From: a virus
Length of the DNA stretch: 64,000 nucleotides
Virus record (IMG/VR): IMGVR_UViG_3300035698_029289
Location: 1-64,000 of that record
Reading direction: 5' to 3' (one strand)
The translations under genes were made by a program, and so were the position numbers. Shown here piece after piece: positions 7,134 to 57,090 of the stretch. Every line of letters starts with the position of its first letter. Positions within the stretch are counted from its first letter, which is position 1. Below the pieces are notes generated by a model. It saw nothing but the letters and a program-made list of their open reading frames with translations, ran no database searches and was not told where the DNA came from.

Positions 7134-7210
7134 GGTATCCGAGCGGATTCGAACCGCCACCATTCCGGGTTCACAGCCCAGTGCTCTAAACCAATTGAGC
7201 TACGGACACC
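7134..7210 (-). tRNA. tRNA-His(GTG)
   Basis: Cloverleaf; anticodon arm CTGGG-CTGTGAA-CCCGG; G-1:C73; no encoded CCA. Confidence 0.93.
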
Positions 7211-7219
7211 ATATTGTTG

Positions 7220-7292
7220 TGGAAAGTTCTGGAGTTGAACCAGAATCCCCTGATTTTCAGTCAAGTGCCGTGACCACCTTGGCTAACTTTCC
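7220..7292 (-). tRNA. tRNA-Phe(GAA)
   Basis: CTTGA-CTGAAAA-TCAGG; T-loop TTCAACT. Confidence 0.92.
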
Positions 7293-7300
7293 TTATTTTG

Positions 7301-7371
7301 TACCGTTACGGAGAATCGAACTCCGGTTATTGGGATGAAAACCCAACGTCCTGCCACTAGACTATAACGGC
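7301..7371 (-). tRNA. tRNA-Glu(TTC)
   Basis: TTGGG-TTTTCAT-CCCAA; T-loop TTCGATT. Confidence 0.9.
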
Positions 7372-7375
7372 TTTG

Positions 7376-7450
7376 CGAGGTCGATGGGATTTGAACCCAC
7401 GGTCTACGGCTTGACAAGCCGGCGCTTTGTCCGGACTAAGCTACGACCTC
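7376..7450 (-). tRNA. tRNA-Asp(GTC)
   Basis: CCGGC-TTGTCAA-GCCGT; G73. Confidence 0.92.
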
Positions 7451-7455
7451 TAGTG

Positions 7456-7529
7456 TGGACCCGAGGAGATTCGAACTCCTAACCTACTCTGTGCAAAAGA
7501 GTCGCTCTAGCCGTTAGAGCTACGAGCCC
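7456..7529 (-). tRNA. tRNA-Ala(TGC)
   Basis: ACTCT-TTTGCAC-AGAGT; G3:U70 present. Confidence 0.93.
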
Positions 7530-7533
7530 TTGT

Positions 7534-7618
7534 TGGCGGAAGATAGAGGAATTGAACCTCTCTGTCCCGAAGGACACGGTTTTCAAGACCGAGGCGACCC
7601 AGTACGCTTTAATCTTCC
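7534..7618 (-). tRNA. tRNA-Ser(TGA)
   Basis: CGGT-CTTGAAA-ACCG; long variable arm TGTCC-TTCG-GGACA; G73 and CCA. Confidence 0.88.
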
Positions 7619-7623
7619 TTGTG

Positions 7624-7711
7624 CGGAAGAGGCGAGATTTGAACTCGCGTATGGAAAAACCAATTCTCCCTTAGCGGGGGAGCACGGTCAACCGGCGCCG
7701 TTTTCGCTTCC
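7624..7711 (-). tRNA. tRNA-Ser(GCT), C33 variant
   Basis: CTCCC-CCGCTAA-GGGAG; long variable arm; G73. Confidence 0.82.
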
Positions 7712-7786
7712 TAATTTTCTTCTTCTTCTTTTAAGCTTCCTTGCCCTTCTTTTGGCCAGGTTCTTTTTTTTCTTCGATTTTGCCAT
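7688..7786 (-). CDS. putative 32-aa Lys/Arg-rich peptide
   Basis: MAKSKKKKNLAKRRARKLKRRRRKLGSENGAG; fills the Pro-Ser tRNA spacer and its 3' end overlaps tRNA-Ser. Confidence 0.45.
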   Translation of the reverse strand: MAKSKKKKNLAKRRARKLKRRRRKLGSENGAG

Positions 7787-7789
7787 TTG

Positions 7790-7861
7790 TCAGGGATGGG
7801 AATTCCGAGATCCCGGCCTCGCGGGCCCAGGCCGCGCGCTCTGCCTCTGAGCTAATCCCTG
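7790..7861 (-). tRNA. tRNA-Pro(TGG), C33 and atypical T-arm
   Basis: Acceptor CAGGGAT/ATCCCTG-A; CGCGG-CCTGGGC-CCGCG; T-arm GGGAT-CTCGGAA-TTCCC. Confidence 0.8.
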
Positions 7862-7864
7862 ATA

Positions 7865-8065
7865 TTACTTTGATTTTACCTCATATTCTCCTACATAGTC
7901 AATGTAATCTTCATCCGCGGAAAAGGTGACTCCTTTTACCGGGGCATCTTCGTCTTTTCCGTGACCCGGAATATAGAGATCGACATAATCATACATCCTG
8001 GTAAAACACCACATTCCGACCCACATTAAGATTCCGCTGATAATTCTTTCTATTTTATCTTTCAT
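7865..8065 (-). CDS. small protein with N-terminal hydrophobic helix
   Basis: Fills the Tyr-Pro tRNA spacer exactly. Confidence 0.65.
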   Translation of the reverse strand: MKDKIERIISGILMWVGMWCFTRMYDYVDLYIPGHGKDEDAPVKGVTFSADEDYIDYVGEYEVKSK

Positions 8066-8067
8066 AG

Positions 8068-8152
8068 TGCCGCCTAGAGGTATCGAACCTCTCTAATCTT
8101 CTCAGATTTCGGCTTTACAGGCCGAGTCGCATCCTTAACGATTTACGACGGC
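8068..8152 (-). tRNA. tRNA-Tyr(GTA)
   Basis: TCGGC-CTGTAAA-GCCGA; long variable arm; A73. Confidence 0.88.
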
Positions 8153-8602
8153 TTACCACCAAAGAGCGTGATACCATTTCACAAATAACTTCATTCCTTT
8201 CTCTCTCTGCTTTTCCAGTTTTTTCCATTGTTTGATAGTTGGTGTGTCATCTTGCTTTTTTGCCGCTTCAAACCCTTTTATCATTTGATTTAGTATTTCA
8301 TCCCATTTTTTGTATGCCTTTTTCCATTGTTTTTCTGTCAAATCTGGTTCTCCAAGTGAAGCAGGGCAGCTTCTTTGGTATTTCTTCATACTTCTTAGTG
8401 CATCGGGGATCCAACTGGATAGATAGTAGTCCAAACCCCAAGCGTCGCAGTCAGACCAACCTCTTTTGCCTCGTTGGATAAACCATTTGATCTCCGTCAG
8501 TATCTCTCCTGGTTTTTCTAATACTCTTTCGATTGGCCACCAAATGTTTGCCTCCAACCACTCAAGCTTTGTTTTTGGTTTCCATTCCTCTAATTTTTTC
8601 AT
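8153..8602 (-). CDS. conserved phage hypothetical protein
   Basis: True start ATG 8602 (MKKLEEW); QRGKRGWSDCDAWGLDYYL...WDEILNQMIKGF...GMKLFVKWYHALW. Confidence 0.8.
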   Translation of the reverse strand: MKKLEEWKPKTKLEWLEANIWWPIERVLEKPGEILTEIKWFIQRGKRGWSDCDAWGLDYYLSSWIPDALRSMKKYQRSCPASLGEPDLTEKQWKKAYKKWDEILNQMIKGFEAAKKQDDTPTIKQWKKLEKQREKGMKLFVKWYHALWW

Positions 8603-8678
8603 GGTCCGAGTTAGGAGATTCGAACTCCTACTATCTGCTTGGAAAGCAGAGATGCTAGCCATTAAACATTAAACTCGG
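8602..8678 (-). tRNA. tRNA-Gly(TCC), atypical C1:G72 and A73
   Basis: TCTGC-TTTCCAA-GCAGA; CCA encoded. Confidence 0.88.
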
Positions 8679-8679
8679 T

Positions 8680-8754
8680 TGGTTGCGAAGCTAGGTTTCG
8701 AACCTAGATTACGAAGGCCAGAACCTCGCGTACTACCAGTTATACTACCTCGCA
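8680..8754 (-). tRNA. tRNA-Gln(CTG)
   Basis: CGAGG-TTCTGGC-CTTCG; U1:A72; CCA. Confidence 0.9.
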
Positions 8755-9251
8755 TTATATTTTTTGTTTCTACCAGAAAAGGTTGGTGTTTGGCTATTGC
8801 AGTTTGGGCAAAGCAACCTAAGGTTTTCTAGTCTATTATCGTTTTTAATTCCGTTGATATGGTCTAAAACTAACACTAAAGGTTTCCCTCGCCATTCGGG
8901 TTTAAGCCTACAGTCGGAATTTGCACACTTGTTTTCAAGCAACCCCGCCCTAAAAAGCCTAATTTTGAGACGCCATCGATTACTATAGGTAGAGTTTCTA
9001 ACAAGTATTTCCTCGAGTGGGCGTCCACTGTTAGGGAATTTTCTTCCTTTGTTGCTATTTAGGCCTGTTGGAATGTGCGAATAATCAACTTTGTCTGATT
9101 TAAGCCTTGTTTTTAATGTTCTAATATTCCCACCGATATTATTGAGTTTAAAATGTTGTAGTATAGCAGAAAAAGTTTTGCTTTTAACAACAAGTTTTTC
9201 CAATTCACTTTTTGGAATTTTCCATATTGGACTTCGTTTTCTCCTATTCAT
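8745..9251 (-). CDS. HNH endonuclease
   Basis: LVLDHINGIKNDNRLENLRLLCPNCNSQT; own promoter TTGACA(9286)-17-TACCAT(9263). Confidence 0.92.
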   Translation of the reverse strand: MNRRKRSPIWKIPKSELEKLVVKSKTFSAILQHFKLNNIGGNIRTLKTRLKSDKVDYSHIPTGLNSNKGRKFPNSGRPLEEILVRNSTYSNRWRLKIRLFRAGLLENKCANSDCRLKPEWRGKPLVLVLDHINGIKNDNRLENLRLLCPNCNSQTPTFSGRNKKYNAR

Positions 9252-9307
9252 ACTAAAATGGTAACATATCTTAATAGACTTGTCAAGAACCTACCATTTT
9301 AGTTCTA

Positions 9308-9383
9308 TGGTTGCCAGACTAGGATTTGAACCTAGAATTTGCAACTTCAAGGGCTGCCGTGTTACCGATTACACTACCTGGCA
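9308..9383 (-). tRNA. tRNA-Gln(TTG), C33 variant
   Basis: GCAGC-CCTTGAA-GTTGC; U1:A72; CCA. Confidence 0.87.
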
Positions 9384-9384
9384 T

Positions 9385-9461
9385 TGGCGGCACGAGACAG
9401 GAATCGAACCTGTATTCTCTCGTTTTGGAGACGAGTGCTTTCCCAGTTAAGCTACCCGGCC
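9385..9461 (-). tRNA. tRNA-Trp(CCA)
   Basis: CTCGT-CTCCAAA-ACGAG; G73 and CCA; one bulged base in acceptor stem. Confidence 0.9.
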
Positions 9462-9468
9462 TTATTTG

Positions 9469-9598
9469 TGGGGATAACAGAGTTGTAGCTGCCAGTGTGC
9501 CTCACTATCACTCCCTTGATGTACAATCCAAAATACTTACAACGAAGTGTAAGATTTAACACTCGCACTTCCGGTCTGTTTTAAAGACGCTATCCCCA
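9469..9598 (-). ncRNA. putative structured RNA B
   Basis: 10-bp closing stem TGGGGATAGC/GTTATCCCCA plus internal hairpins, inside tRNA operon. Confidence 0.5.
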
Positions 9599-9609
9599 TT
9601 AAGCGGTCA

Positions 9610-9711
9610 ATTGACTGCTTAGTGAGACGAGCAATGGATTTTATGCTAGAAATGGGCCAAGAGACCAAAATCCCTCTGCTCCACCAACCTCCGCCTCACT
9701 AAATTGTCAAT
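9610..9711 (-). ncRNA. putative rod-shaped RNA A
   Basis: TTGAC..TTAGTGAGGCG / CGTCTCACTAA..GTCAA, then GAGCA..GGATTTT / AAAATCC..TGCTC. Confidence 0.5.
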
Positions 9712-9713
9712 GT

Positions 9714-9787
9714 TGGCTCCAAGGCTGGGAATCGAACCCAGAACCAGTGATTAACAGTCACGCGTGATACCGTTTCACCACCCTGGA
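9714..9787 (-). tRNA. tRNA-Asn(GTT)
   Basis: GTGA-CTGTTAA-TCAC; U1:A72; G73 and CCA. Confidence 0.93.
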
Positions 9788-21000: not shown

Positions 21001-21909
21001 ATGGCGTGGGGATTAATTACATATCAAGATGCCGCGCGTAGAGAAGATCTATTGGATGTTATCGGAGATGTATCTCCTGATGAGACTCCACTTTTGACTC
21101 TTTTCGGCACAAGCACGGCAAAAGGAACTCTGCACGAATGGCTGGCATACTCAGTCTCAAGACCAACTTCGGTATCTGCCGATGTTGAAGGAGCTGATAC
21201 CACATTCGGAGATTTGACTCAACCCAACAGAGTAGTCAATGTTACCCAAATTATTAAAGAACCGGTTCAAGTTTCTCGAACCGAGCGACGGGTTAATGTG
21301 GCTGCAATGGGAGATCCGTATGCTTTCCAAAAAGCAGAAGCACTTCGTCGTCTAAAAATGAATATGGAGTATGCTTTACTGAATGCTGCGAAAGCCTCTG
21401 GATCGTCTGGTTTGGCTCGTCAAATGAATGGAATCGATGCTTTCATCACAACTACTGTTACTGCTCGAAACTCAGGAACTTCGTTTTCTGAAACTGAGCT
21501 AGAAGCTATGGTTTCTGATGCCTGGACAACAGTCGATCCCGACAAGGTATTTGACATGCTTCTTTGTACTTTCAAAATCAAGCAGAAAATTGCCGGGTTC
21601 TCTGGAAACTCTACTAGATATATTGATGCAACTGAACGAAGACTTGTTAAAGACGTGTTGGTTTATGATTCCGCTGGTGGATCTCACAGAATCTTTGCAC
21701 ACAAAGATGTGAGGAACTCAGCAGGTTCAACAACTATCTTGGGCCTACGAGAAGATTTGTACAAGACTGCGTATCTCGACAAACCAATGTTTGAAGAACT
21801 TGCTAAAACAGGTGATGCGGACAAGGGTCACTGGGTAACAGAATTTACGCTTGAGTCTATAGCAGAGAAGGCTAGTTTGAAGCGAACAGGGTATAATCAA
21901 AACGGGTAG
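21001..21909 (+). CDS. major capsid protein (SU10/DUF5309-like)
   Basis: REDLLDVI..VSP.ETP, HEW, NVTQII...VQVS.T, RQMNGI, LAKTGDADK....TEFTLE. Confidence 0.92.
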   Translation: MAWGLITYQDAARREDLLDVIGDVSPDETPLLTLFGTSTAKGTLHEWLAYSVSRPTSVSADVEGADTTFGDLTQPNRVVNVTQIIKEPVQVSRTERRVNVAAMGDPYAFQKAEALRRLKMNMEYALLNAAKASGSSGLARQMNGIDAFITTTVTARNSGTSFSETELEAMVSDAWTTVDPDKVFDMLLCTFKIKQKIAGFSGNSTRYIDATERRLVKDVLVYDSAGGSHRIFAHKDVRNSAGSTTILGLREDLYKTAYLDKPMFEELAKTGDADKGHWVTEFTLESIAEKASLKRTGYNQNG

Positions 21910-21961
21910 TAATACCCGAATGGTTGATATTTTATCCTGGTTTTGGTAGTATGAGAATACT

Positions 21962-22381
21962 ATGAAAACCAAAAGTTGCACTTTTAAAGCTTGTAATAGA
22001 AAACATTATGCCAAAGGTTATTGCCGAAAGCATTACCGACAGCGTATTGGTGAATCTGCCACTAGATGGCAAGTAATTAAATCTGATCCTGTTCTTTATG
22101 AACATTGGAGAGAACTCCAAAGAAAATGGAGCAGAAACCATAAAAGGGATCATCGGAAACATTCTGATAAAATCTACTTTGGTGGTAACAGAGAAATTGC
22201 GATTCAGCGAGACAATGAAAAGTGTGTTCGATGTGGAATGACACGGGAGGAACATCTTGCCAAATGGAAGAAAGACCTTCATGTTAATCACAAAGACCAC
22301 ACTAAAAGGAATGATTTGGATAATCTTGAAACATTATGTCTTCCTTGTCATGCTTCTAAAAGTCACTATAGTAAGAGATAA
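21962..22381 (+). CDS. HNH endonuclease
   Basis: RDNEKCVRCG...LHVNHKD...NDLDNLETLCLPCH; own promoter TTGATA(21924)-17-TAGTAT. Confidence 0.9.
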   Translation: MKTKSCTFKACNRKHYAKGYCRKHYRQRIGESATRWQVIKSDPVLYEHWRELQRKWSRNHKRDHRKHSDKIYFGGNREIAIQRDNEKCVRCGMTREEHLAKWKKDLHVNHKDHTKRNDLDNLETLCLPCHASKSHYSKR

Positions 22382-22529
22382 AATTACCTTGGTTTAAGTT
22401 ACAACCAGAACGGTTAAGGTGTAACATAGGCTTAGAGGGAGACAAAAAACATGCGGACATTTACCGCATTACCCTTGAATAAAATAAATGCGCACTCTAT
22501 GAACTGCCAAAGTTTGCATAGAGTACAAA

Positions 22530-22919
22530 ATGCCAAAGACAATAGTTTATGACAAATTATCGGGAAAACTGCGAAGATGGATGGATGTCCAAGACGCAGA
22601 ACATATAGTGCAACTTAGAAAAAAGAAGGGCAAGTGGACCGTCATTAAAGATTTAATTAAAATATGGATGGAAAGAAGCCCTGAGGAATTCAAAGGGTTT
22701 AAAGTTCATTTGAAAGACATTAAAGAAACGAGGCTTGACAAGAAATTCGGTCAAACACATAGCAAGAAACAAGAGAGAAGGTTAATATTGGTATTTCCGA
22801 TGGCCTTACAGTCTCTTATCAGAACGATATATTCATCAAGTGAATTACCATTTAACCGAGCCTTTTTTCATGAGTTCGGTAAAAGATTCCGGATTTTTCA
22901 GATTCCGGAAAAACTATAG
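22530..22919 (+). CDS. hypothetical protein
   Basis: ORF track; post-capsid position. Confidence 0.7.
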   Translation: MPKTIVYDKLSGKLRRWMDVQDAEHIVQLRKKKGKWTVIKDLIKIWMERSPEEFKGFKVHLKDIKETRLDKKFGQTHSKKQERRLILVFPMALQSLIRTIYSSSELPFNRAFFHEFGKRFRIFQIPEKL

Positions 22920-46912: not shown

Positions 46913-47530
46913 ATGGCCTTGTGTAAATGCGGTTGCGGTCGTGAAACAAAAATTGTTTGTGGTAAACCAAATCGGTTTATTCATGGGCATAGTGGGAATT
47001 TTTATAAAAATGGGCACGAGTTTCAAGGAGACATAGCAAGGTCAAACTATTTCAAAAAAGGTTACACTCCTTGGAACAAAGATAAAAAAGGGGTTTTTTC
47101 TGTGGAAGCACGTAAAAAACAATCAGAAGCCGCCAAAAATCAAAAAAATAGAAATATTGAGGGATTGAAATTAGGCTGGGGATATTGGAGGGATAAACAT
47201 AACCCACATATGGTTGGAGAAAAGAATCCTAATTACAAAGGAGGCATTAGTAAAATTAAAAAGAATAGTCGTCGATTAGACATGGAAACGCTTGAGTATA
47301 AACAATGGCGAAGAGCGGTTTTTAAGAGAGATTATTGGACATGTTTGTCTTGTGGTGAGTCTAAGGGTGGAAATTTTATAGCTCACCATATTAAAAAATA
47401 TGATGACTATCCTTCTTTAAAATATAATGTTGATAATGGATTTACACTTTGTGGAAAATGTCACCTATTTACATATGGGTATGAAGAAGATTATGAAAAA
47501 TATTTTTTGGAGATATTAAAATGGCAATAA
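46913..47530 (+). CDS. HNH endonuclease (NUMOD-type N-terminus)
   Basis: CKCGCG, PWNK, WRRAVFKRDYWTC..C, AHHI, NGFTLCGKCH. Confidence 0.9.
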   Translation: MALCKCGCGRETKIVCGKPNRFIHGHSGNFYKNGHEFQGDIARSNYFKKGYTPWNKDKKGVFSVEARKKQSEAAKNQKNRNIEGLKLGWGYWRDKHNPHMVGEKNPNYKGGISKIKKNSRRLDMETLEYKQWRRAVFKRDYWTCLSCGESKGGNFIAHHIKKYDDYPSLKYNVDNGFTLCGKCHLFTYGYEEDYEKYFLEILKWQ

Positions 47531-52554: not shown

Positions 52555-53132
52555 TGGCAAACATACTTATTAATTCTGATTTTGAGAATGGAAGTGGAGA
52601 CCGAACCACAGAAGGGTGGCTTGGCAATAGTTCTGCTTATGGTACTTATCTTATGGCTGCTTATGGAACTTTATCCTTTCAGGCTACCGCTTATCATGGT
52701 TCTCAGGCTATTAAACTTGATGTTGGACAAAGCTCTTGGCTTGAAGTAAGTAATGTTGATACAAATGATACTAATGCAATCAAGGCCTATTGTCCTGCGA
52801 TTACAGGAAACACAAAATATAAACTTACTGGATGGCAGAAAAGCGATGGCTTCAGCGTTGGTGTTCAAGGATTATGTGTTTATATTAGGGAATTTGATTC
52901 GGATGGAGCTGTTATTGTTAATTTGGCTACGGATGGTATGTTAGGCACTCAAGACTGGACAGAAGTAACACACACTTGGACAACTCACGCTGATGCCGCC
53001 TACATAGGAATTACCTATATAAGGGCACACGGAGATGGAGGAGCTACTGGCGATTTATATGCCGATTACTTTAGTTTGGAAGAAGTAGGAGAAGAAGAAA
53101 AAAACAACATTTATGGATATTTTAATTGCTAG
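52554..53132 (+). CDS. CBM4/9-like carbohydrate-binding virion protein
   Basis: NILINSDFE, YKLTGW.K, GTQDWTE, YADYFSL. Confidence 0.7.
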   Translation: MANILINSDFENGSGDRTTEGWLGNSSAYGTYLMAAYGTLSFQATAYHGSQAIKLDVGQSSWLEVSNVDTNDTNAIKAYCPAITGNTKYKLTGWQKSDGFSVGVQGLCVYIREFDSDGAVIVNLATDGMLGTQDWTEVTHTWTTHADAAYIGITYIRAHGDGGATGDLYADYFSLEEVGEEEKNNIYGYFNC

Positions 53133-53134
53133 AC

Positions 53135-53791
53135 ATGAGAAATAAAAACATTATACATAAATGTAAAAACTGTGGAAAGAAATTTTTCCATCGGTCGAAA
53201 GGAGCTAATAAATATTGTTCTCATAAATGTTATGTCGAACATTATTGGACAAAGGAAAGACGAGAAGCTCAAGCAATAAAAAGTAGAAAAAGAATATTAA
53301 GTAAAAATCCTATGGAAAATAAAGAAAATAGAAAAAAAGTAAGTTTGTCTAAACTAGGAAAAAAAAGAAAGCCATTTAGTAAAAAATGCAAAGAAAATAT
53401 GAGCAATGCTCATAAGGGAGAAAAGAGTTGGTTTTGGGGAAAAAAGGGAAGTCAGCATCCTGGTTGGAGAGGTGGTTTATCATCATTGAATCAATTAATT
53501 AGAAGCAATGGTTTAATGGACTCTTGGAGAAGAAAAATATTCGAAAGAGACAATTTTACTTGTCAGGAGTGTAAAGGAAATGGGCGGTTAGTAGCACATC
53601 ATATTGTTACTTTCATAACTCTCTTGCGAAAAAACCATATAACAACAGTAAAAGAGGCAGAAAAATGTGATGAACTATGGAATCTTGATAATGGTATAAC
53701 TCTATGTAAAAAGTGTCATGACCCTACGATTAAAAGAGAGAAATTATATGAAGAAAGATACAAGGAAATTATTGAAAGTTTCAATGTTTAA
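53135..53791 (+). CDS. HNH endonuclease
   Basis: WRRKIFERDNFTCQEC, AHHI, NGITLCKKCH. Confidence 0.9.
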   Translation: MRNKNIIHKCKNCGKKFFHRSKGANKYCSHKCYVEHYWTKERREAQAIKSRKRILSKNPMENKENRKKVSLSKLGKKRKPFSKKCKENMSNAHKGEKSWFWGKKGSQHPGWRGGLSSLNQLIRSNGLMDSWRRKIFERDNFTCQECKGNGRLVAHHIVTFITLLRKNHITTVKEAEKCDELWNLDNGITLCKKCHDPTIKREKLYEERYKEIIESFNV

Positions 53792-54178: not shown

Positions 54179-54472
54179 ATGAAAGAAAGGTTGTGGAAGG
54201 CAATATCAGAAATAGACGGAGAAATCTTTTCTCTGGGAATGAAAGATGCCGAAATAATCCGCTTACCTGAAAGTGAATGGATTGAAGGAGGAGAACATGG
54301 TATTTTTGCGACAAGACATAAGTCAGATGCCGAAAAAGTTATTTACTCTGCCGAACATAGAAAGGTTTTGTCAATACCATTAAACATGAAAGTGATACCT
54401 ATTATTGGTGAGATAAAGGATGATAGAGGGAAGACAGTAGTTTGTGAAAGGATTTTAATAGAAGGTGAATAA
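54179..54472 (+). CDS. hypothetical protein
   Basis: ORF track. Confidence 0.6.
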   Translation: MKERLWKAISEIDGEIFSLGMKDAEIIRLPESEWIEGGEHGIFATRHKSDAEKVIYSAEHRKVLSIPLNMKVIPIIGEIKDDRGKTVVCERILIEGE

Positions 54473-56432
54473 AGAAATAGGATTACACTATTTAGGGGGT
54501 GACTTTAAGACAAGAACCCAAATCAGACGGAAACTTCTCTCTGAGGAGTTGACTGCTCCGCTCCAATTAACAAAACCTGCTTTAGTTAGAACCTTCGCTG
54601 AATGGCAGCCGATTATAAACAGACGGCAAAAAGAATACCAGGAACTCCTTGGAATACCAGAAACAATCCACATTGAAATCGCTACTGAAAAACCAATCCT
54701 GCTTGTCCCCATAGGGGATGTTCATGCCGAGCATCCTGAAACCAATCTTGAACAATTTGGTAAAGACATAGATTTAGCAAAATCAGTTAATGCGTATTTT
54801 ATCACTTTAGGAGATTTAACCAATAGTATCTTCTGGAAAGCAGAACCTTCCTTAATGACTGCCCAAGAGTCAACAATGTATATCAGGTCGGCCTTGAAAT
54901 ATATGGCGGAAGATGGACACCTTTTGGCTTCATGGCTTGGCGACCATGATTGTCTTGATGAGAAAACGGAAGTATATACAAAACGAGGTTGGTTAAAATG
55001 GAATGAGCTTAATGAAAAGGATAATCTTTTGACTATAAACCCCGATGGTGGGTTGTTAGAATGGCATAAATACGAAAAGAAAATTGTTGAAGATTTTGAT
55101 GGAGAGCTAATTCATATCAAGGGTAAAAATATTGACTTGTTGGGAACAGAAAACCATCGGGTGTTTTATCAAAAGCGAAGAACTGATAAATATGATTTTA
55201 TCCCCTTGGAACAGTTTGCTAGTTTAAAGTGGGCAGACCATTATGGAATTCCTAATGCTTCAACTTTTAATTTTAGTGATTATCCGATATCAGATGAACT
55301 AATTCGATTGGTGGCGTGGTTGATTACTGATGGGTGGATTCAAACAAGAAAAGGCTATGGTTATCAACGGGTATGTTATACACAAAAGGAAGAGGATGCT
55401 CATTTAATTACTGATATTTTGGATGGACTTGGTTTTAAGTATTCTGCTAAAAGAAGGATTAGAACAAGAGATAAAATTGATGGCATGAAAATTAAATCCT
55501 TAAAGCCATCTATTGATATAGGAGTTTGTTCCAAAGATTCTAAGAAAATTTTAGATTTGATTAAAGATAAAAAATCCATGCCGTCATGGGTTTATAAATT
55601 GAGTGATAGGCAGTTTGACGCTTTTCTGGATTCTTTGATTGATGGTGATGGAACTCGGCTTCCGAGAATGAAGAATTGTGCTTGTTTCTATCAAAAGAGC
55701 AAGAAATTGATTGATGAATTACAGGCTTTGTGTGCGATGCACAATATTAAAACCAACATTTACGAGTATAAAAACCGAATGGGGAATAAGCAATATCGGC
55801 TCAATATAAATTTTAGGAAAGACACTCGATTGGTTTCTCCAAAAGCGGTTAGAGAAAATTACAAGGGGAAGATTTGGGATGTTTCAATACCACCTAACAG
55901 AAACTTCTTTGTTAGAAGAAATGGCAAAGCGTATTTTACTGGTAATTCTTGGGCTTTTGACAAACACGGAAGCCATACACTTTACGCTGATTTTTGGGAG
56001 AAGTTTAACGCCCATTTACTAGACGGAGTATCTTATGTTGATATTGGACTTAATAACGGAGATACAGTCCAGAAATACGGGATAGTTGGCTCTCATCGCC
56101 ACCCTGGCCACAGTATCTACAATTCCAGCCATCAATGTTTAAGACAATGGAGAGATGAGGGAGTAGGGTCTCTTATTAGTATTTCTGCTCACAAACACAC
56201 TAAGGCCCATAATCAACAAACCCATAAACTTTATGGTGGAAAAGAGGTTGTGTTTCATTCTGTTGCCATAGGAACATATAAAGAATCAGACCGATATAGC
56301 AGAAAACACGGTTGGCCACGCAAGGGAGAAAAGACAGCTGGAGCGTTTGGAATAGTGCTTTATCCAGGCAAGGAAAAAATTCACATTTTCTGGGAATTAG
56401 AAGATGCGGTAGACGCACTAAGCAAGGCTTGA
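54465..56432 (+). CDS. calcineurin-like metallophosphoesterase with intein
   Basis: GDVH, GDL, GDHD, SH, AHKH motifs. Confidence 0.85.
   Translation: MNKEIGLHYLGGDFKTRTQIRRKLLSEELTAPLQLTKPALVRTFAEWQPIINRRQKEYQELLGIPETIHIEIATEKPILLVPIGDVHAEHPETNLEQFGKDIDLAKSVNAYFITLGDLTNSIFWKAEPSLMTAQESTMYIRSALKYMAEDGHLLASWLGDHDCLDEKTEVYTKRGWLKWNELNEKDNLLTINPDGGLLEWHKYEKKIVEDFDGELIHIKGKNIDLLGTENHRVFYQKRRTDKYDFIPLEQFASLKWADHYGIPNASTFNFSDYPISDELIRLVAWLITDGWIQTRKGYGYQRVCYTQKEEDAHLITDILDGLGFKYSAKRRIRTRDKIDGMKIKSLKPSIDIGVCSKDSKKILDLIKDKKSMPSWVYKLSDRQFDAFLDSLIDGDGTRLPRMKNCACFYQKSKKLIDELQALCAMHNIKTNIYEYKNRMGNKQYRLNINFRKDTRLVSPKAVRENYKGKIWDVSIPPNRNFFVRRNGKAYFTGNSWAFDKHGSHTLYADFWEKFNAHLLDGVSYVDIGLNNGDTVQKYGIVGSHRHPGHSIYNSSHQCLRQWRDEGVGSLISISAHKHTKAHNQQTHKLYGGKEVVFHSVAIGTYKESDRYSRKHGWPRKGEKTAGAFGIVLYPGKEKIHIFWELEDAVDALSKA
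54951..55946 (+). mobile_element. intein with LAGLIDADG endonuclease (332 aa)
   Basis: HD|CLDEKTEVYTKRGW, TENH block B, LITDGW and LIDGDG, FFVRRNGKAYFTGN|S. Confidence 0.93.
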
Positions 56433-56507
56433 AAATAAGATGTCCAGTATTTTCTTTTCTTATTGGAGAAATGGTATAATAATGAAAATGAGGACAGAAT
56501 AAATATT

Positions 56508-57026
56508 ATGCCAAAAGGAGTTTATTTTCGTACTGAAGCAACTAGAAAGAAAATAAGTGAAGCCCGTATGGGTAAAAAGCTTTCTGAAAAAACTAAACGG
56601 AAATTGAGTGAAATTCATAAACGGATTGGCACTAGGCCACTTTCTCGTAAAGGCATCATTTTGAGTGAAGAGCTTAAAAAGAAACTAAGTAAAATTCATA
56701 AAAAAATCGGAACTATGCCGCCACACCCTAAAGGAAAAGACCATCCTAACTGGAAAGGTGGCTTCTCGCTTTATCCTATTGATTGGACAGAAACCCTAAA
56801 AGAATCTATCAGACAAAGAGATAACTGTGTTTGTCAGTTATGCGGAATACATCAAGGCGAATTAAAAGGATTTCATAAGAAACTAGATGTTCACCATATT
56901 GATTATAATAAAGATAATCTAAATCCAGACAACTTGATTTCACTTTGTAAAAGTTGTCACTTGAAAACTAATTATAATCGGGAATATTGGCTTGAATATT
57001 TTCAACAAAAGGAAGTGAAAATATAA
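56508..57026 (+). CDS. NUMOD3 plus HNH endonuclease
   Basis: SEKTKRKLSE repeats; IRQRDNCVCQLC, VHHIDYNKDN..NLISLCKSCH. Confidence 0.92.
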   Translation: MPKGVYFRTEATRKKISEARMGKKLSEKTKRKLSEIHKRIGTRPLSRKGIILSEELKKKLSKIHKKIGTMPPHPKGKDHPNWKGGFSLYPIDWTETLKESIRQRDNCVCQLCGIHQGELKGFHKKLDVHHIDYNKDNLNPDNLISLCKSCHLKTNYNREYWLEYFQQKEVKI

Positions 57027-57090
57027 ATGATAAACTGGCGTGATGGAATATTGAACAGGCGATAGATTTTATGGCAATCTGATTATTCCC

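Follow-up and report, generated by a model that had tools for sequence, protein, structure and literature searches.

A putative homing endonuclease gene at the 3' end of a phage major capsid gene, set between a probably imported and a stranded gene ending

Analysis of the window, a stretch of 64,000 nt that forms part of a 74 kb metagenome-derived virus record of IMG/VR, led to a complete major capsid protein gene followed by a free-standing HNH endonuclease gene and by a second copy of the last capsid codons. The features of this region are listed below.

21001..21909, plus strand: major capsid protein gene, 302 aa, complete and unspliced (Pfam PF17236 SU10_MCP, E-value 3.5e-64)
21889..21909, plus strand: functional gene end, GYNQNG and TAG; apparently imported with the endonuclease gene, and an outlier against the empty alleles
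21962..22381, plus strand: free-standing HNH endonuclease gene, 139 aa (Pfam PF01844, E-value 1.5e-5, above the curated cut-off; PHROG HNH families)
22382..22399, plus strand: right end of the inserted segment, ending GTTTAAGT, which matches the L003 cassette end GTTTCTTAAGT
22400..22417, plus strand: stranded original capsid end, YNQNG and TAA, outside the capsid frame; 18/18 nt identical to the empty-site ends of L002 and L087
22530..22919, plus strand: next conserved gene, 129 aa, synteny anchor with no known function; its homologues lie 50-193 nt past the capsid stop in 27 relatives

The capsid ORF (21001-21909) closes with ACA GGG TAT AAT CAA AAC GGG TAG, and downstream of the HNH ORF the sequence TAC AAC CAG AAC GGT TAA is located at 22400-22417 with GT directly 5' of it. 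Five of the six codons of the two YNQNG-stop copies are unlike, each at the third base only, and the fourth (AAC) is the same. In silico removal of 21891-22398 (508 nt) yields ACA GGT TAC AAC CAG AAC GGT TAA, which reads TGYNQNG and stop. The original prediction of a capsid C-terminus duplicated across an HNH gene, with synonymous third-position changes in five of six codons and a TGYNQNG end once 21891-22398 is deleted, was confirmed by the sequence in all these points. Six-frame translation of the 64 kb window gives YNQNG with a stop at these two places only, the chance expectation being about 5e-6 per 700 nt from trinucleotide frequencies. Furthermore, among 132 stop-to-stop frames of at least 90 aa, the capsid frame is the only one whose tail (last five residues and stop) recurs within 700 nt downstream. 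The third-base differences had also been termed "synonymous recoding"; the differences stand, but a designed feature is not needed, and the best reading is that a donor and a recipient allele had diverged in the ordinary way. The codon changes may additionally have been selected for altering the target site.

The sequence KRTGYNQNG is the conserved C-terminus of the capsid family (120 homologues, nearly all of 302 aa), and the upstream YNQNG copy completes the 302 aa ORF in phase, with the exact ending of the family and with no splicing. The closest homologues (P0002-P0009) present 84-88% identity, and the deposited-phage collection held no capsid relative above 34% identity. The identical capsid protein and the identical HNH protein were each recovered on three contigs, from three sources (JGI, Logan and ENA), which argues against a chimera. 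According to this alternative, which had accompanied the original prediction, two strain variants of the capsid 3' end would have been joined in one contig by the assembler; the record is metagenome-derived and the two copies do resemble two alleles. Nevertheless, the copies are separated by an entire HNH gene and its own flanks, no run common to both is long enough to mislead an assembler, and locus L003 independently carries a homologous HNH gene at the same position, so that we regard such an artefact as extremely improbable.

Thirty-five related capsid loci with flanks were gathered from viral, metagenome and genome collections, all of them about 70% identical to the window in DNA. Four are occupied by an HNH gene (L003, L021, L061 and L062), one bears an intron together with an HNH gene (L007), three are unclear and the remaining 27 are empty. 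Several of these empty-site alleles, whose existence the original prediction had anticipated, have exactly the reconstructed ending. The distance from the capsid stop to the next gene is 620 nt in the window and falls to 112 nt without the 508 nt, inside the range of 50-193 nt. The HNH genes located 3' of the capsid in L003, L021, L061 and L062 present 32-66% identity, the protein of L003 being 66% identical to that of the window. Residues C88, C91, H107, H110, N121, C126, C129 and H130 of the HNH motif do not vary among the aligned proteins of the window, L003 and L021. The HNH ORF is separate from the capsid ORF, lies in a different reading frame and has no intron or intein around it. From its sequence, the gene inside the last capsid codons looks intact and is predicted to be a selfish free-standing homing endonuclease gene. 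A packaging-type (terminase-associated) HNH was also considered and was dismissed on account of the absence of the gene from most relatives. No clear Shine-Dalgarno sequence was seen for the HNH gene of the window, and we count this against our preferred explanation. As for translation in L003, its HNH ORF has a strong ribosome-binding site (L003:3960-3980) and no in-frame ATG, GTG or TTG start. The stranded end of the window is in the same frame as the HNH ORF, 18 nt past the HNH stop (22379-22417), which could be due to chance (one case out of three).

Concerning the origin of the two copies, the downstream one equals the commonest empty-site sequence and is then followed by the native intergenic motif at native spacing, and for these two reasons it is taken as the former end of the recipient's capsid gene. 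Its local alignment with the consensus end scored above all of the 1000-2000 shuffles. The upstream copy differs from every empty allele at 3-6 of 18 nt, whereas the empty alleles differ among themselves by 2.5 nt on average over the same length. Since it is an outlier with a hairpin arm of its own and an L003-like left junction, the upstream functional copy most likely arrived with the endonuclease gene, the comparison being one with relatives of about 70% identity among which there is no close parent allele. A search for a co-conversion tract by sliding identity gave no usable signal, the synonymous sites being saturated at that level of identity. The last 18 nt are unusually conserved among the empty alleles (about 86%, compared to about 70% gene-wide), as expected of a homing target.

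The borders of the inserted segment were compared with those of L003, and one further feature was recognized at the left side.

21910..21926, plus strand: 17-nt left-flank motif common to the L003 cassette (16/17 nt identical to L003 3910-3926)

Across the 51 nt around the left junction, the window and L003 share 82% identity, compared to 69% in the HNH body and about 70% in the capsid gene. At the right side both cassettes end with GTTT..TAAGT, after which the window passes into the stranded end and L003 into the native motif. Within the 508 nt insert, 71 nt and 17 nt lie outside the HNH ORF; position 21891 is a minimal left boundary only, and the imported tract may extend further into the capsid gene. 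When viral contigs were scanned for the junction patterns, the right joint was not found elsewhere, and the sole match of the 17-mer (L076) was unrelated and due to chance. The flank just after the functional stop (window 21910-21927; L003:3910-3927) agrees in register with the native gene end at 13 of 18 nt, and its score was reached by 3 of 2000 shuffles for L003 and by 62 of 2000 for the window. This flank may represent a former gene end that has decayed, or else derive from the near-palindromic arms of the hairpin described below, which do account for part of its likeness to the gene end.

Both gene endings, as well as the intergenic region that follows, are associated with predicted hairpins.

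21887..21940, plus strand: extended hairpin comprising the last capsid codons and 30 nt past the stop (fold z-score -4.1)
22398..22425, plus strand: hairpin of the stranded end, with the 5' arm in the old codons and the 3' arm just past the old stop (z-score -4.7), laid out as in the empty alleles
22429..22470, plus strand: native intergenic motif and hairpin, homologous to the region 3' of the capsid stop in L004, L020, L025, L085 and others

The core of the hairpin at the functional end is CGGGTA / TACCCG (21903-21918), and the 3' arm that pairs with the stranded end comprises the 8 nt past the old stop. A hairpin spans the capsid stop in every related allele, its post-stop arm being complementary to, and co-varying with, the last codons of that same allele. 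Since each arm pairs with its own codons, gene end and flank seem to form one co-adapted unit that travels together. The stop-straddling hairpin is possibly a terminator or an mRNA-stabilizing element, and it may explain the conservation of the last 18 nt. The intergenic motif between the capsid and the next gene, which has no known function, consists of GGCTAGAGRGG, an A-rich run, ACG and then the hairpin. Together with its stop and arm, the upstream end has the appearance of an ordinary donor capsid terminus closely followed by an HNH gene, a resemblance which implies that the HNH gene of the donor was intergenic.

The explanation that we favor, with a probability of about 0.8, is that the HNH gene is a free-standing homing endonuclease gene whose homing site is the capsid 3' end, and that the ending of a donor was imported while that of the recipient was left stranded. 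An element-free phage would have been cut or nicked near codon 297 (ACA GG/T TAC), presumably by the HNH enzyme, and repair would have copied a segment from a donor in which the endonuclease gene lay directly past the capsid gene. The copied segment would comprise the donor's last capsid codons, the stop, the post-stop hairpin arm and the HNH gene, and would have been joined ahead of the remaining 18 nt of the recipient (TAC...TAA). The joint itself, AAGT/TAC, would be either an illegitimate join or inherited from a donor already built in this way. As an outcome, the recognition sequence would be split and the recipient's own ending would lie untranslated downstream; no splicing would be needed, since translation through the imported codons already gives the capsid protein its usual terminus. 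Taken together, the stranded ending and the empty alleles narrow the likely cut site to a few bases and provide a defined substrate for testing.

It is disputable whether this layout is a heritable cassette. In an alternative that otherwise shares the core of our explanation, the HNH gene is normally plain intergenic, and the window shows a one-off repair scar, with the left side exchanged by homology and the right side joined illegitimately at AAGT/TAC; 29 nt of the recipient (the old end and 11 nt) would have survived, and the terminus would have no role in mobility and would not be propagated as a unit. A stranded end is present in one of the five HNH-occupied alleles, namely that of the window, and in the other four none can be seen; even degenerate stranded ends are missing from L003, L021, L061, L062 and also L007. 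The closest cassette, L003, has both cassette ends and runs directly into the native motif. The resemblance of the imported end and arm to an ordinary donor terminus, with the intergenic HNH gene that it implies, fits a scar as well. Against an accident, a probable second stranded end lies past another HNH gene of the same genome and suggests recurrence, and the stranded capsid end is pristine, as would be expected if, in a heritable unit homing in the manner of an intron, it provided downstream homology that is renewed at each homing event. We consider the scar a serious candidate, with odds somewhat short of even. For the "cassette mechanism" of the original prediction, this means that the layout is supported, while a replacement terminus as an obligatory part of endonuclease mobility is contradicted by the four other occupied alleles without a stranded end.

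The probable second stranded end is an orphan ending of 12 codons at 57044-57082, past the HNH gene at 56463-57026. Its residues follow the C-terminal pattern of the gene upstream (54465-56432) and of protein P0122, with 5 identities and 4 conservative matches over 12 positions, and it is weaker than the capsid case. The upstream gene encodes a 655 aa protein with a LAGLIDADG_3 domain at residues 386-453; P0122, its one intein-less homologue in the protein search, has only 360 aa, and the product of 54465-56432 likely contains an intein. No homologues of this second case were found in the whole records of five relatives or in deposited phages. Additional HNH genes are located at 46913-47530 and 53126-53791, and two of the three HNH genes outside the capsid region harbor NUMOD3 motifs. 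Endonuclease genes abound in this genome. The minus strand also bears ten clustered tRNA genes (7134-9787).

An intron was considered as well. Were the 508 nt a self-splicing intron with an HNH ORF, the mRNA would join 21890 to 22399 and the upstream ending would be incidental. Precise removal does restore the consensus ending, the 508 nt end in G, and relatives carry group I introns in their capsid gene, one of them only 5 nt away. Specifically, codons 295 (CGT) and 296 (ACA) of the L007 capsid gene are separated by a group I intron of 226 nt that bears no ORF (L007:3862-4087; local scan, 45.6 bits, E-value 1.4e-10), 5 nt from the site of the window. It is preceded by U and ends in G, its second exon is a normal TGYNQNG end, and a broken, stop-interrupted HNH gene (L007:4196-4513) is established just past the capsid stop. 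The window element, on the other hand, has no similarity to this intron. No intron of the window matched Rfam at the gathering threshold, and RF00028 had no match at E-values up to 10 within 21600-22700; the same scans detected the group I introns of relatives at 37-46 bits. The ORF leaves no more than 71 and 17 nt of the insert free, and the 5' exon would end in G, whereas that of a group I intron usually ends in U. Above all, the unspliced ORF already has the exact conserved ending, with synonymous changes only in relation to the other copy. An intron is consequently very unlikely at this place.

The start of the stranded end, the insertion point of the L007 intron and the rise of similarity to the L003 cassette all fall within about six bases, in codons 295-297, and the capsid 3' end is an insertion hot spot. 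Apart from this site, insertions near capsid codons 16-39 were observed in L015, L016, L025, L027, L028, L007, L096, L145 and L146, 700-900 nt before the capsid body. Three of these, near the 5' end of the gene in L015, L016 and L027, score as group I introns (37-45 bits), and three carry LAGLIDADG-type ORFs. At some of these loci short N-terminal pieces are repeated upstream; the capsid gene of the window has neither such insertions nor repeated N-terminal pieces.

The arrangement is closest to the mobile-ORF gene hybrids of fungal mitochondria, reported for atp6, atp9, cox2 and nad3 of Glomus sp., atp9 of Rhizopus oryzae and cox2 of Mortierella verticillata, with expression data documenting the hybrid architecture (PMC3630166). 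The atp6 gene of Allomyces macrogynus is cited in the same article as a hybrid of this kind. In those hybrids and in the window the order is the same, namely the gene core, an inserted in-phase C-terminal piece, which is foreign in the fungi and probably so in the window, the endonuclease ORF and the native C-terminus stranded downstream; in both, the native piece is nearer to relatives than the inserted piece, the differences are largely synonymous and no splicing is involved. The fungal hybrids involve LAGLIDADG or GIY-YIG genes in organelle genomes and replace tens of codons, whereas the window has an HNH gene in a phage structural gene, with five or six codons and a stop replaced. Moreover, the insert of the window brings its own stop and hairpin, leaving the endonuclease ORF separate and not fused as in the fungal hybrids. 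To judge from its sequence, the layout long known in fungal mitochondria appears here in a phage capsid gene. The literature searched, of incomplete coverage, contained no example of a replacement terminus in phages.

If our explanation is true, the coding sequence of an essential and highly expressed phage gene is open to an endonuclease gene that simply brings along the few codons that would be missing, with neither intron nor intein. Short orphan endings located past HNH genes could help annotators to recognize recent homing.

In T4-like phages, endonuclease genes of this type are flanked by conserved genes and occur in some relatives only; their target lies in an essential gene next to them, and the flanks undergo co-conversion. 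Those elements are intergenic and have no duplicated gene end, unlike the window, and the other features are alike. Free-standing homing endonucleases and intronless homing of T4-like phages are exemplified by SegF, SegG and MobE (PMC2988022, PMC2790892). Free-standing endonuclease genes beside phage capsid or other essential genes, and their collaborative homing with introns, are likewise established (PMC10448857, PMC6083498, PMC2988022). Collaborative homing couples an ORF-less group I intron to an adjacent free-standing endonuclease gene, as in cyanophage S-PM2 psbA/F-CphI, T3/T7-like phages and the ICP1 terminase (PMC6083498; PMC10448857). L007 has the layout of collaborative homing at the same capsid site, and the window does not have the intron; also unlike collaborative homing, the target in the window is interrupted by the insertion itself and has altered codons. 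Group I introns occur in phage capsid genes, for example in Cluster J mycobacteriophages (PMC3706429). These share with the window the capsid gene as target of a mobile element, while the window element has no ribozyme and no splicing.

It is possible, though rather doubtful, that the last capsid codons represent a single homing site existing in four states: empty, with a plain intergenic HNH gene, with an HNH gene between replacement and stranded ends, and with an ORF-less group I intron next to an HNH gene. In that case the replacement-end layout, recurring at least twice in this genome, would be a general splicing-free route of entry into essential phage genes, and it could replace or accompany the pathway proposed to lead from free-standing endonuclease genes to mobile introns. 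Four such states of occupancy would provide a compact natural system for studying the evolution of homing sites, target-site immunity and partnerships between introns and endonucleases.

Finally, some members of the family have a different capsid ending, YVQTGV or YIQTGV, which was seen in L062 (894-921), in L001 (3885-3912) and in proteins P0021, P0030, P0039, P0043 and P0063. It adjoins a double HNH gene in L062 and is also present in L001, which is free of HNH genes. This ending may be a target-site variant tied to another endonuclease lineage.
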